Shown: positions 9,750 to 21,340, numbered from the stretch's first letter. The stretch: 64,000 bases of DNA from Rikenellaceae bacterium (GCA_900771005.1 CAAGMI010000060.1:43427-107426), one strand, 5' to 3'. Notes: generated from the sequence alone by a model not told the origin. Numbers and translations: made by a program.

Positions 9750-9787
9750 GGGGTCCCGCCAACATTTGCACCAAAAGTCACAATAAG
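9750..9787. repeat. left 38-bp terminal inverted repeat, Tn3-family-like (GGGG...TAAG)
   Basis: GGGGTCCCGCCAACATTTGCACCAAAAGTCACAATAAG. Its reverse complement recurs at 21303-21340 with 38/38 identity. Length 38 bp, GGGG outer end and TAAG inner end as in Tn3/Tn21 IRs. Confidence 0.7.
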
Positions 9788-9808
9788 GAACAAAATCCGC
9801 TGATACCC

Positions 9809-9828
9809 TGCCACAAAAGTCACAATAA
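9809..9828. repeat. subterminal direct copy of the inner half of the IR (CACAAAAGTCACAATAAGG)
   Basis: Second copy of AAAAGTCACAATAAGG lies 22 bp inside the left IR. Confidence 0.5.
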
Positions 9829-10148
9829 GGCTTAAGCAGGCAATTATCCGTCTTCAGATAGAGTTAGGGGCTTAATCATGTATGTTTTGCCGGTGACAAG
9901 TTAGCCTGTTCGAGAGCTGAAATCACCAAGTTTCATTGAGCCAAATGGAAGCATATTGCACCGGGAATAGTGCACAATTCGGAAATATTTGCACAGAAAT
10001 CAGTGCACACTTCTTTGCTGATACTACTTATGACGTTATTTTACATTTTTCCAACTTTTTCAAAATTGTTATAAAAATTGCAAAATCCGAGGTTGGGTAC
10101 GGCACCCTAAGGGACTTCCGGTTAATCCTGGCATTTTAATAATGATAC

Positions 10149-11522
10149 TCAAGCCTTGTCAACAACCTCGCAGTAAGGTTTGATCATCCCTTCATTCATC
10201 TTGCCTCCCATCTTGGACTTGAGTTTCTGATTGTGCATCAGGGAGCCCACGAGATACATCTTCATTGACGTTCCGAACTTCTTCTGAGGGAAGTCGTACT
10301 GGCCGTGGCTTTTGAAGAAGCGGTGGTCCGCACGCATCAGGCCGCGCATAAGGAAAATCAGATCTCGGAAAATCTTCATGCCGCCTACGCCAAGGAAGTT
10401 CTGCGGCATCACTATGCCGTTTTCCATCGCATAGCAGAGCGAGTCACTCAAGCGCTGCAGTGCCCCGTCCGTTCCAGCCTCATTGCCGGCAACTCCGGCC
10501 AGAAAGTTACCGCCGACCTGAGCCCTTGCCTCCAGCACCGTTCGGAGGTTGTTCTCCTGCGAATACAGGCCGTCGATGATATACCCGAAAGGAGTCCCCA
10601 TGGTCACTGTCCTGTGGCCGTTGCAGAACTGACGGTCATCGTACATCTTGAAGCGGGAGCCCATCGAGTGGTCCTGGATACAGAAGGCGTATATTATCGC
10701 GTCATGCTTATGTATTGTACCGCGAAGGAACTCATCGAATCCGTCCTTGTAGAAGCACTTCCCGGTAGCCGAGCAGTTGAAGCAGCTGATGCATCCGCCC
10801 TGGAAGGGGAAATCCTCGATGTTCACAACGTCGCACTCATACGGGAACACTGCCAGAAAACGGTCCACCATCGTCTTCAGGGCTGAGTCTCCCGCCTTGA
10901 TATCGGCCACTATTACGGCCCTGCGCTCAGATGACTTGGGCAGCGGCTGACATTGGGTTGCGGGCACGGGGACGAAGTCGGGAGCGAAGTGATCCGGCTT
11001 CTTGAAAAAGCCCTTGCCGATGTTCCACAGTAGCATACGGAACCAGTCCACGGCCTGACGCTGGCCGTTCTCCGTGAGAAGATCATCCATATCGGCCGAA
11101 AGGCCCTCTACGAACGGCAGGGCCATATCGGCACAGTTGTCCTCAATGAATTTGTGCGCCGTGATGTCATAGAAATGCTTCGAGGTCGTGACTTGTGTAG
11201 CGTATTTCCCGGACAGGTCAATGCCGGAAGCCTTCAGCAGCTCTATGAAACGGTGCAGCTGGCACGGCACTAGAAAAGTGTACACCGGATAGCTGAAGAG
11301 CAGGACATCAGCCTTTGCAACGGCCTCCGCGGCCGGAGAAAAGTCCTTCTCCAACGCCTTTATGCGCTGACCGGCGTTAAGATAATCAAAATTGCACTGA
11401 GGGAATTTCTTCTGCAGATAAAGGCATGTCTGCAGTGTGGTGGAATACTTGCCCTTGGGGCTTCCGTTGATTACAAGTACATTAAGCATGCTCAAAGATA
11501 GTAACTTTCCTGATTCTGACAC
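10149..11522 (-). CDS. tandem flavodoxin-fold NAD(P)H-dependent oxidoreductase with compact Cys cluster (iron-sulfur-flavoprotein-like)
   Basis: VLVINGSPKGKYST (NADPH-dependent FMN reductase-like) plus second flavodoxin-like half. CISCFNCSATGKC = CX2CX2CX5C motif as in Isf proteins. True start may be the MLNVLVING Met at ~11489. Confidence 0.6.
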   Translation of the reverse strand: MSESGKLLSLSMLNVLVINGSPKGKYSTTLQTCLYLQKKFPQCNFDYLNAGQRIKALEKDFSPAAEAVAKADVLLFSYPVYTFLVPCQLHRFIELLKASGIDLSGKYATQVTTSKHFYDITAHKFIEDNCADMALPFVEGLSADMDDLLTENGQRQAVDWFRMLLWNIGKGFFKKPDHFAPDFVPVPATQCQPLPKSSERRAVIVADIKAGDSALKTMVDRFLAVFPYECDVVNIEDFPFQGGCISCFNCSATGKCFYKDGFDEFLRGTIHKHDAIIYAFCIQDHSMGSRFKMYDDRQFCNGHRTVTMGTPFGYIIDGLYSQENNLRTVLEARAQVGGNFLAGVAGNEAGTDGALQRLSDSLCYAMENGIVMPQNFLGVGGMKIFRDLIFLMRGLMRADHRFFKSHGQYDFPQKKFGTSMKMYLVGSLMHNQKLKSKMGGKMNEGMIKPYCEVVDKA

Positions 11523-12687
11523 TCTCCAAATATGAGGCCAGTACTGAGAGGAAGCAGTATATTCCGGTCTGTATGAGCAGCCCGTTCAGCAGATTCCCGA
11601 CCTGCGTCAGTTCACATCCAGCCGTATTCAGATTGATGAACGCAGGACAGGCGAACGATGTAGGGAATATGTATGAAAACAATCGCCATACTTTCGGGAA
11701 TGCCGTTACCGGCCAGGAGAACCCGGTCAGGAACATCGCAATCGGTGAAATGAACAGCAGGGCGACGAGAACGGTCTCGCGCTTGCGAAAGAACGAGCTC
11801 CATGCTGTTGCAAAAAAGACGCAATCCGTGACATAGACAAGCAGAAGCACCAGTATGTCCGCAAAACTGCCCCTTTGCGGCAATCCGAACATCGCAGGCA
11901 CCAGGCAGGCTATATATACGCCGATGAACATAAATATCATCCAGTATGCCGCGGTCCTTCCGGCAACGACGCTGCCGACAGCCGGGCCGCGAGTACGGCT
12001 GCAGAGACGCAGATAGCTGCTTCCTTCCTCTCGTACAGTTCCTGCCAGCAGGCAGACACCATAGAACATCACCTGCTGTATGATGAGCAGCAGGGCTGCG
12101 GACAGGAAGAAGATGGAGTATGAGAAAGTCTTGTTATAAGGGTTGTTCTCGTCATAAGGGATAGCTTCTATCAGCTGGGAAATCTCCTGGTCGGAAATGC
12201 CCCCGGCACTGTACCGCTCGATCTTGATCTTCTCCATCTCATCAAGCATCACGAAGTTCGCCCCCAGCATAAGGTTCTTGTAATAGAGGAAGCTGCTCAT
12301 GTCGGCATAGATAGAAAGCGTCGCAGTGCGGCACTCGTCGATGTCGCGGCCGAAATCTTCAGGGAAATATATGACACCCTTGACCTTCCGCTGCCGCATC
12401 AGTTCCTCAGCCTCCGCCATAGTGGCACATTTGCGCGCAACGCGCAATTCACGGGTGGCGTCCACTTTCCGTATATACCTGCGGCTATGGACGCTGCGGG
12501 ACTCATCGACCACGGCGACAGGCGTATCCTCAAGTATACCGTTATGGTAAATACAGTTGTACAGGAGCGGATATCCCAGACCCGCGACGCAGAATATGAG
12601 CATCACGCCTCCGTCGGTCACAATCCTTTTCAGTTCGCGCCGGCATATCAGCACGGCGTCGCCGAACCATTTCTTCAATCCACCCAT
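11482..12687 (-). CDS. ABC-2 type transporter permease (YhhJ-like)
   Basis: 401 aa. N-terminal TM, large periplasmic loop, C-terminal 5-TM bundle. Translationally coupled to neighbours. Confidence 0.75.
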   Translation of the reverse strand: MGGLKKWFGDAVLICRRELKRIVTDGGVMLIFCVAGLGYPLLYNCIYHNGILEDTPVAVVDESRSVHSRRYIRKVDATRELRVARKCATMAEAEELMRQRKVKGVIYFPEDFGRDIDECRTATLSIYADMSSFLYYKNLMLGANFVMLDEMEKIKIERYSAGGISDQEISQLIEAIPYDENNPYNKTFSYSIFFLSAALLLIIQQVMFYGVCLLAGTVREEGSSYLRLCSRTRGPAVGSVVAGRTAAYWMIFMFIGVYIACLVPAMFGLPQRGSFADILVLLLVYVTDCVFFATAWSSFFRKRETVLVALLFISPIAMFLTGFSWPVTAFPKVWRLFSYIFPTSFACPAFINLNTAGCELTQVGNLLNGLLIQTGIYCFLSVLASYLESVRIRKVTIFEHA

Positions 12688-20173: not shown

Positions 20174-20367
20174 TTACGCTCCAAAGAACTTGGTGGGTTC
20201 TACGGTGAAAAACATGTACGTTTGTGGCCGGGAAGAATCATTAGTCCTCAGTGACAAGTTAGACGGTTCTACGGAGTTTTTCAATAAATATTCTTTATGA
20301 GCCACAAAACTGATATGAATAGGCGGCTTAAGTCTATCTGTCTGTTCTCTCTAAACCCTCTGTCACT

Positions 20368-20670
20368 CTATTTGTCATCCTTCCGCAGTTTCTCCTCGTA
20401 CTTCTTGTCATAGGCTTCGCCTCTCGGGACAAGGTACTTGAAGAACACGCAGTCATCGATGATCTGTATGTGGAAGATGAAGAACGCACGGAGGCTTCCG
20501 ATACGGATGCGGTAGACGTTGTCATAGCCGACAAGCTTCTTGCAGTCGGTAATCTCATCCAAGCATGTTGCGTTCTTGACCTCAAGAATCGTGCTCTTGA
20601 CGGAGTTCAGTGTCTTGCCCGACAGCTTGCGGACTGATTTCTCAAAATCCTTCGAGTACTTCGTCTTCAT
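20368..20670 (-). CDS. type II toxin-antitoxin system RelE/ParE-family toxin
   Basis: 100 aa. ...VGYDNVYRIRIGSLRAFFIF... RelE/ParE core. 4-nt overlap with the upstream small gene. Confidence 0.7.
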   Translation of the reverse strand: MKTKYSKDFEKSVRKLSGKTLNSVKSTILEVKNATCLDEITDCKKLVGYDNVYRIRIGSLRAFFIFHIQIIDDCVFFKYLVPRGEAYDKKYEEKLRKDDK

Positions 20671-20918
20671 AGTCCCAGCCAGTTCTCAAAGTCCTTTGTC
20701 TCTTCTTCGGAAAGCTCGACGTCTCCGTCAGGACGGACAGAGCACAGGTACTGGTAGGTGGCCGCTTCGTCCATATCCTCTACATCCTTCTCGAGGAGTG
20801 ATTCGATATAGCTCTTGAGGTTTGTGCCGGATGCGGCCGCCTTGATGGAAAGGAAGCGGTATACATCTTCGCGGATGTCGATGTTCTTTCTTTTTGTCTG
20901 AACTGCTGCAGTATTCAT
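20667..20918 (-). CDS. ribbon-helix-helix type antitoxin
   Basis: 83 aa. NIDIREDVYRFLSIKAAASGTNLKSYIESLL = RHH/CopG-like fold. Acidic C-terminus. AT-rich palindromic operator region upstream (20919-21000). Confidence 0.6.
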   Translation of the reverse strand: MNTAAVQTKRKNIDIREDVYRFLSIKAAASGTNLKSYIESLLEKDVEDMDEAATYQYLCSVRPDGDVELSEEETKDFENWLGL

Positions 20919-21302
20919 AATTAGTTACTTTAATATTATGTGCAAATGTATATAATATATTTGTAAATACAATATACCAATCACAATTCATACTGAAATA
21001 TATGAGATATACTATATACATTATACAAAGTAGCACATATGTGGTGTATACAAAACCACCGTATAACATACTTTTTCAAAAAGTTCTTGACAACATCAGT
21101 TCTTATCCTTAATTTTGTATATCTTGTTATATGCGAAACAAAGTCTATCTTGAAACCCGAAACGCTGACTAAATATACAAAATTGCCATGATCATCGGAT
21201 AAACTGGGGCCACATCCAGCTTTATGGGAAGTATTACTTCAACAGTAATCTGTTATTGCCGGAAAGCGGCTTCAGGCCACTCAGGATTCAAGAAGAAAAC
21301 GA

Positions 21303-21340
21303 CTTATTGTGACTTTTGGTGCAAATGTTGGCGGGACCCC
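21303..21340. repeat. right 38-bp terminal inverted repeat, Tn3-family-like
   Basis: CTTATTGTGACTTTTGGTGCAAATGTTGGCGGGACCCC = exact reverse complement of 9750-9787. Confidence 0.7.

Follow-up and report, generated by a model that had tools for sequence, protein, structure and literature searches.

The question raised by this locus is how a block of efflux and regulatory genes came to lie beside trmD of a Rikenellaceae bacterium, enclosed by perfect inverted repeats of the Tn3 type and lacking a transposase gene. The block comprises 11,591 bp (positions 9750-21340) of a DNA stretch of 64,000 nucleotides (GCA_900771005.1 CAAGMI010000060.1:43427-107426), which was analysed at full length and is called the window here; positions refer to it unless another contig is named. 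A preliminary description, made from the sequence alone, had taken the block for a Tn3-derived element, either non-autonomous or surviving only as a remnant. This proposal was supported by related elements (siblings) in other assemblies, by an empty site and by the non-generic nature of the repeat. Very probably, the block is one insertion of a Bacteroidales-lineage Tn3-family transposon which is now defective through an internal deletion of 3,432 bp and a missing 42-bp unit.

Terminal repeats, empty site and target duplication

The 38-bp sequence GGGGTCCCGCCAACATTTGCACCAAAAGTCACAATAAG was found at 9750-9787 on the plus strand and as its exact reverse complement at 21303-21340. A repeat search revealed this pair as the longest inverted repeat of the 64-kb window. 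No further copy with up to 3 mismatches was present in the window, and dinucleotide-preserving shuffles (n = 100) gave 0.00 matches to the repeat. Thus, the perfect repeats reported earlier for both ends were confirmed. Both show the features of Tn3-family repeats, namely a length of about 38 bp, a GGGG outer tip, a TAAG inner end and an outward orientation. The left copy forms the cargo-side end and the right copy, on the minus strand, the tnpA-side end. The flanking sequence reads CGTCATATATT directly before the GGGG tip on the left and TATATTTTTCATTC directly after CCCC on the right.

The repeat is not a generic sequence. In a scan of 185,579 species-representative genomes, a 22-mer derived from it turned up at 8 single-end loci, in each case as a transposon end and in a Bacteroidales assembly (horse faeces, UBA1736, Candidatus Cryptobacteroides). 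Two contigs carried it in the JGI metagenomes, and no match was obtained in viral contigs. Only Bacteroidales assemblies of animal-gut origin contain the repeat.

A homology search with the 695-amino-acid open reading frame of the beta-barrel gene to the right of the element led to an intact 870-amino-acid version (P0001, 99% identical), and in this way to the contigs L032 (99 kb) and L033. In both, the barrel gene directly adjoins trmD and the element is absent. Positions 1-8124 of the reverse complement of L032 correspond to positions 1626-9749 of the window (98.8% identity), and positions 8119-10261 correspond to 21341-23483 (99.6%). The two matches overlap by the 6 bp TATATT, of which the empty site contains a single copy (CGTCA TATATT TTTCATTC); the same overlap was observed for L033. 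In the window TATATT occurs twice, at 9744-9749 and at 21341-21346, and each copy abuts the tip of a terminal repeat. The insertion point lies in the 226-bp spacer between trmD (8857-9534) and the CarboxypepD_reg/beta-barrel gene. This comparison proves a transposition-type insertion with exactly the boundaries drawn in the preliminary description, since L032 and L033 join the trmD-adjacent sequence to the beta-barrel gene precisely at the repeats. The earlier view of the flanks as TATAT with an offset of 1 nt was an incomplete reading of the perfect 6-bp duplication.

The left junction was independently reproduced by the contigs L002 and L010. The right junction, together with the internal deletion described below, was reproduced by another assembly (L021) containing the IS4-family transposase gene, the barrel gene, the right repeat, the deletion junction and the toxin pair. 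The contiguity of the cargo from 11283 to 20535 was reproduced by L045 with 99.99% identity.

Autonomous siblings and the internal deletion

Siblings of the element were found by looking up the exact sequence of a RelE-like toxin, encoded in the right part of the block (20368-20670, minus strand), in public assemblies. In L011 and L014 the identical 38-bp repeat lies just past the stop codon of tnpA; copies encoding TnpA and ending in the same repeat thus exist. Both contigs encode a TnpA of 984 amino acids (PF13700 DUF4158 and PF01526 DDE_Tnp_Tn3), a serine resolvase of 194 amino acids (PF00239 and PF02796) and the same antitoxin and toxin. The sibling TnpA scored 824.6 bits against NF033527 transpos_Tn3 (cutoff 500) and aligned end-to-end with the TnpA of Tn4430 (PDB 7QD8, E = 9e-215). 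Among annotated proteins, its nearest matches are Tn3-family transposases of Firmicutes, encoded on plasmids of Staphylococcus and Enterococcus (41-42% identity); one of these lies beside vanR in pVEF1.

Comparison of the window with L011 by blastn gave two matches, L011 65-181 to window 21318-21202 (99%) and L011 3614-4543 to window 21201-20276 (97%). The window is collinear with L011 except for a clean gap of 3,432 bp at the junction 21201/21202. At this junction ATCATCGGATA is joined to AACTGGGGCCA (on the minus strand GGCCCCAGTT to TATCCGATGATCAT) without microhomology. On its left side, collinearity with L011 identified the first 14 nt of tnpR (21188-21201, plus strand, ATGATCATCGGATA, M I I G Y...), and on its right side the last 36 codons of tnpA with the stop codon (111 nt, 21202-21312, plus strand, translated as NWGHIQLYGKYYFNSNLLLPESGFRPLRIQEENDLL followed by the stop). 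A tblastn search of the window with the sibling TnpA and TnpR returned only a 41-residue C-terminal TnpA match at 21187-21309 and nothing else convincing. The previously noted absence of TnpA and resolvase therefore holds for intact genes, but remnants of both tnpA and tnpR are present. A Tn3-type transposase of about 1,000 amino acids (PF01526/NF033527) is encoded by L011 and L014 and not by the window copy. Since tnpA is reduced to 36 codons in the window and intact in the siblings, the window copy is a derivative of a member of this group and not an autonomous member. Of the resolution module, the window retains 14 nt of tnpR, which in the siblings encodes the 194-amino-acid resolvase, and a spacer of 269 bp between tnpR and the antitoxin gene.

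Long inverted repeats around regulated surface or efflux genes are common in Bacteroidales, which would favour an interpretation of the two repeats as recombination sites of an invertible or rearranging segment (inverton, shufflon). We reject this interpretation as having next to no probability. The empty sites in L032 and L033 lack the whole segment and reveal a target duplication, the repeats have the GGGG...TAAG form of Tn3 and adjoin the remains of tnpA, a recombinase gene is not found next to them, and all siblings show the same orientation relative to the toxin pair.

The block also shares features with Tn3-derived miniature elements (TIMEs), with composites of them (TIME-COMPs) and with mobile insertion cassettes, namely Tn3-type repeats with a target duplication, the lack of a transposase gene and a presumable dependence on the TnpA of another copy (PMC4133298). 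Two independent miniature elements bracketing chromosomal genes would account for the missing transposase and for a mosaic cargo, parts of which occur elsewhere without the toxin pair (L044), and such structures are known (PMC4133298, PMC13367494). However, this origin is very improbable, as collinearity with L011 and L014 all but rules it out. The right 1,065 bp (20276-21340) follow an autonomous transposon through the 3' end of tnpA, the 5' end of tnpR, res and the toxin pair, and besides the missing 42-bp unit the 3,432-bp gap is the only large difference from L011. Moreover, neither end carries a second, inward-facing repeat, and one 6-bp duplication flanks the whole unit. In contrast to elements that are miniature or bracketed by two miniatures, the block is a single 11.6-kb transposon with one internal deletion which has kept the presumed res, the toxin pair and the gene remnants.

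The two ends of the window copy differ from each other. At the left end the repeat is followed by a 42-nt subterminal unit (9788-9829, plus strand), detected in the repeat search. At the end of this unit the inner 16 nt of the repeat recur as CAAAAGTCACAATAAG (9814-9829), 42 nt further in. At the right end only the repeat is found and the 42-bp unit is missing (compare 21261-21302). The unit is present at the tnpA end of L011 (39-80), L014 and L027 and absent at the cargo end of L012, L016, L023 and L028; across the siblings it is variably present at either end. Its loss is consistent with recombination between the two 16-nt direct repeats. Possibly, the unit provides an extra binding site for TnpA.

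At some sibling ends a further arrangement was observed. In L012 (7878-7993), L016 (3617-3732), L022 (about 190-410, minus strand) and L030 (6380-6536) ends are stacked: the repeat of the present element, with a mutated tip (GGAG, GGAA or GGGA in place of GGGG), immediately follows a full 80-nt end (repeat and subterminal repeat) belonging to a related element of the Tn3 type, for example GGGGTAGCGCTGCC...TACCAATAAG or GGGGGTGGCACGCC...TATCAATAAG. Such stacked ends could have arisen by nested insertion at an end or by the capture of one element's end by another.

Toxin-antitoxin pair, presumed res and history of the copy

The 100-amino-acid toxin was identified by a PDB sequence search only (phmmer, 3BPQ_B, RelE3, E = 4e-8, residues 1-88); it had no Pfam or NCBIfam match. 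The identical toxin adjoins tnpR and tnpA in L011 and L014. Upstream of the toxin gene and overlapping it by 4 nt, a putative antitoxin of 83 amino acids is encoded (20667-20918, minus strand), which possibly is of the ribbon-helix-helix type; its profile match was weak (PF07764 Omega_Repress, E = 0.011). Of the RelE/ribbon-helix-helix pair postulated in the preliminary description, the RelE part is supported by the match to RelE3, and for the ribbon-helix-helix part there is a weak hint only.

The toxin pair (20918-20368) lies 269 bp from the start of tnpR and is divergent from it, as in L011 and L014. The intergenic region between them (20919-21187) is collinear with L011 3628-3896 and forms part of a 931-nt match to L011 with 97% identity. 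Within this AT-rich sequence the motif TGTATA occurs several times, and AATTTTGTATAT and ATATACAAAATT form an inverted repeat of 12 bp. In the Tn3-family elements with TnpR examined by Lima-Mendez et al. (2020, PMC7157771), the toxin pair was located beside res in all cases. The element of the window likewise carries an integral toxin-antitoxin pair beside the resolution region, and because its position fits this rule for toxin-antitoxin-carrying Tn3 transposons, we take 20919-21187 as the presumed res, probably together with divergent promoters.

In several contigs with the toxin pair the homology to the window stops inside this spacer, namely at L012 4166, L017 329 and L019 876 (corresponding to window position 21144), and the same kind of stop was seen in L013 (window 21082) and L015 (window 21057). 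Beyond the stop a fumarase is encoded in L012, a LacI-type regulator in L013, and Fic/RhuM together with another resolvase in L015. These contigs may represent one-ended remnants or products of recombination at res.

The ancestral element would have consisted of the left repeat, a variable cargo, the leftward toxin and antitoxin genes, res, the rightward tnpR and tnpA genes and the right repeat. By analogy to the Tn3 family, the parent would have moved by replicative copy-in transposition, with TnpA acting on the 38-bp repeats to form a cointegrate. TnpR would then have resolved the cointegrate at res within 20919-21187, and the RelE-like toxin pair beside res may stabilise the element. The present copy is probably unable to move alone. 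As both repeats and the whole spacer between tnpR and the antitoxin gene are kept, a sibling with identical repeats could in principle supply the proteins which mobilise and resolve the window copy. Such siblings occur in assemblies apparently derived from the same run of ENA samples.

Two orders of events have to be considered. In the order that we favour, with some confidence, an autonomous copy inserted at trmD and subsequently lost tnpA and tnpR in place. This order is preferred because the deletion junction was seen at the trmD locus only, namely in the window and in L021. Decay in place is moreover the commoner fate of transposon copies, which counts against the reverse order. A deletion preceding the insertion is rather unlikely; the block would then be a large, active non-autonomous derivative without tnpA and tnpR, moved by the TnpA of a sibling and resolved by its TnpR. 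In favour of such an early deletion are the two perfect repeats identical to those of L011 and L014, the preservation of the whole spacer with the presumed res, the intact target duplication and the occurrence of ends without the subterminal unit on siblings in different flanking contexts. Furthermore, mobilisation in trans has been documented experimentally for non-autonomous elements of the Tn3 family (PMC4133298). Nevertheless, besides the restriction of the junction to a single locus, a search of the JGI metagenome contigs with a 22-mer spanning the junction gave 0 matches (a limited search and hence weak evidence), and the 64-kb window contains no source of TnpA.

Several observations weigh against the assignment of the block to a single Tn3-family insertion. 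The duplication, although AT-rich as is usual in the family, has a length of 6 bp, whereas members of the Tn3 family are reported to make 5-bp target duplications (PMC11417375, PMC4133298). A 5-bp duplication (ATATT or TATAT) with one extra T at one tip would fit the empty site equally well. None of the repeat loci from the species-representative genomes and JGI metagenomes holds a complete second copy, so that no second complete copy with a verifiable duplication emerged from these scans. The antitoxin was assigned from gene order and one weak profile match, and in the 269-bp spacer no res subsites were identified, only conserved AT-rich sequence with repeated motifs. Finally, no autonomous copy is present within the window.

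Duplications were likewise not apparent in related material. A 6.8-kb related element in L036 and L037 showed no target duplication at either site, possibly because these metagenome contigs are chimeric, and pairing of the UBA1736 ends (L025, L027) gave no clean duplication.

Related elements, distribution, cargo and flanking genes

The closest characterised relatives belong to the Tn1546/Tn4430 branch of Firmicutes. In addition to the end-to-end alignment with the TnpA of Tn4430 and the identity of about 41% to the pVEF1 transposase beside vanR, the repeat of Tn1546 in pVEF1 (GGGGTAGCGTCAGGAAAATGCGGATTTACAACGCTAAG) also has 38 bp and the GGGG...TAAG form. At the tnpA end of Tn1546 in pVEF1 the inner motif likewise recurs in a subterminal position, at a distance of 41 nt (42 nt here), and in both elements tnpA stops inside this subterminal copy; this feature is thus common to the lineage and its closest characterised relatives. 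On the other hand, the TnpA proteins are only about 41% identical and the repeats share little beyond their termini. In the pVEF1 element tnpR is oriented opposite to tnpA, whereas both have the same direction in siblings of the L011 type. The Tn1546/Tn4430 branch further differs by its Firmicute hosts, in contrast to Bacteroidales, and by a 5-bp duplication instead of the 6 bp observed. Tn1546 carries vancomycin resistance in place of an efflux and regulatory cargo, and tnpA and tnpR are missing from the window copy.

In its organisation the lineage resembles transposons of the Tn5501 type (PMC7157771), which show the same order of toxin, antitoxin, res, tnpR and tnpA and in which the toxin genes likewise adjoin res and are read divergently from tnpR. 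Common to both are also a toxin of the RelE/ParE superfamily, an antitoxin without a Pfam match, and near-identical transposition and toxin-antitoxin modules combined with varying passenger genes. Tn5501, however, is proteobacterial and belongs to the Tn3000 subgroup, and the element has no detectable DNA similarity to any PLSDB plasmid. Furthermore, the toxin of the window matches RelE3 (3BPQ) and not the ParE Pfam family.

Correspondingly, a near search of PLSDB with the whole element gave no DNA match, and a distant search with the transposition module returned only parts of Firmicute tnpA genes (at most 65% identity over at most 19% of the query). When 5.8 billion proteins were searched with a word index, 19 relatives were obtained at E <= 1e-50, which were 50-100% identical and all derived from metagenome assemblies. 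One related Tn3-family element of 6.8 kb is present in L036 (1121-7947) and L037 (70-6903). It has perfect 80-bp ends, a TnpA with 59% identity, and the order Peptidase_C10 with inhibitor, YafQ toxin, HicB-like antitoxin, res, tnpR and tnpA.

In the open-access literature searched, no description of Tn3-family elements in Bacteroidales was found, and the lineage does not seem to have been described before. A more far-reaching proposal is a Tn3 subfamily not described so far, found in Bacteroidales only and frequent in the intestines of herbivores. It would have modular ends of about 80 nt, which can be stacked as a whole behind the end of a related element and in which the 42-nt unit is variably present, 6-bp instead of 5-bp duplications, a conserved platform of tnpA, tnpR, res and toxin that exchanges large cargo (for example efflux or oxidative-stress genes), and deleted copies that are still moved by siblings. 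We consider this proposal speculative and doubtful.

Tn3-family transposons are well known from textbooks as vehicles of resistance genes in Proteobacteria and Firmicutes. The locus and its siblings show that a toxin-antitoxin-carrying Tn3 lineage is active in Bacteroidales inhabiting the guts of horses and other animals: near-identical strains (98.8-99.6%) differ by the presence or absence of the element, and the lineage ferries multi-gene efflux, redox and regulatory modules. The window contains a clean natural case of a defective copy with defined ends. The understanding of how Tn3-family elements work is unchanged by it; what is mildly unusual is limited to the length of the duplication (6 bp) and to the ends, which are modular or stacked.

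Many metagenome contigs and contigs of metagenome-assembled genomes end at or within the repeat, such as L002 (at 9749), L010 (at 9760) and the start of L011. In many cases tnpA ends up alone on a contig of about 3 kb; L034 (3,066 nt) contains tnpA only, and the 3-kb contig of the TnpA cluster representative P0121 has no flanks. Assemblies break at this multi-copy or polymorphic element, and these transposons are probably under-represented in metagenome-assembled genomes of Bacteroidales. Knowledge of the ends should be useful for the annotation of mobile DNA in Bacteroidales assemblies with contigs breaking at such repeats.

The cargo comprises about 10.4 kb, and the efflux, flavoprotein, AraC and lipoprotein genes listed for it before were confirmed by Pfam search. 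On the minus strand it starts with a flavodoxin-like protein with an FMN-reductase domain (10149-11522; PF03358 FMN_red, E = 6.7e-12), followed by two ABC-2 membrane permeases (11482-12687 and 12689-13858; PF12698 ABC2_membrane_3, E = 9.6e-39 and 5.1e-31), an HlyD-family membrane-fusion (adaptor) protein (13855-14835; PF16576 HlyD_D23, E = 2.1e-22) and a TolC-like outer-membrane efflux protein (14849-16360; PF02321 OEP, E = 3.5e-52). A first AraC-family regulator is encoded on the plus strand (16520-17428; PF12833 HTH_18, E = 5.9e-19), a Cthe_2159-family protein on the minus strand (17438-19195; PF14262, E = 9.9e-45) and a second AraC-family regulator again on the plus strand (19283-20173; PF12833, E = 2.1e-15). 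The sequence MKKTIVAMIFMAGALCSC is suggestive of a signal peptide of the lipoprotein type at the N-terminus of the Cthe_2159-family protein. Judged by these domains, the cargo appears to form an envelope efflux set under AraC control, composed of the outer-membrane protein, the HlyD-type adaptor, the two permeases and the flavoprotein, which is joined to a lipoprotein/AraC pair.

This cargo is mosaic and differs among the siblings. They share the end on the cargo side, from 9750 to about 9890, as well as the part from 20276 to the right repeat. In blastn comparisons the conserved inner part of the cargo-side end (9830-9890, plus strand) was matched by L012, L016, L022, L023, L028 and L031 up to 9875-9890, beyond which the sequences diverge. 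The boundary zone between the conserved transposition and toxin-antitoxin module and the variable cargo spans 20276-20367, where sibling homology ends at 20276, 20301, 20308 or 20323-20330. L011 carries genes for EamA, Zip, rubrerythrin, AraC, AhpC and ResB, L012 genes for unknown proteins, and L029 almost no cargo. The block 17425-20205, with the Cthe_2159 gene and the second AraC gene, is 91% identical to L044 4299-7071, a locus without toxin pair or repeats. The same block was also observed in L046 with 99.8% identity, there followed by a Fic gene in the place of the toxin. These contexts indicate a passenger block that circulates between different surroundings. The first AraC gene and the 5' end of the TolC-like gene recur with 89% identity in L026 beside another element end.

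To the right of the element, the CarboxypepD_reg/beta-barrel gene (21358-23445) is followed by an IS4-family insertion sequence (23484-24904) with a transposase gene at 23509-24681 on the minus strand (NF033592, 214 bits). This insertion truncates the barrel gene to 695 of 870 codons. Its repeats of about 17 bp read TACTACTGATGCGATAA and TACTAGTGATGCGTTAA, and no target duplication was found for it. Past the insertion sequence, collinearity with the intact locus L032 is lost, suggesting an IS-associated deletion or rearrangement.

The contigs L001, L004 and L005, which encode an identical TrmD, were rejected as empty sites. They diverge 8 bp before the repeat into a TonB-dependent receptor gene and represent another variant, in which a deletion of 5.6 kb has removed the TPR, Porph_ging and barrel genes and brought this receptor gene beside trmD. 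Among strains with at least 98.8% identity, the region downstream of trmD thus exists in at least three structural forms: the intact empty site (L032, L033), the 5.6-kb deletion (L001 type), and the transposon together with the IS4-family element (window, L021).

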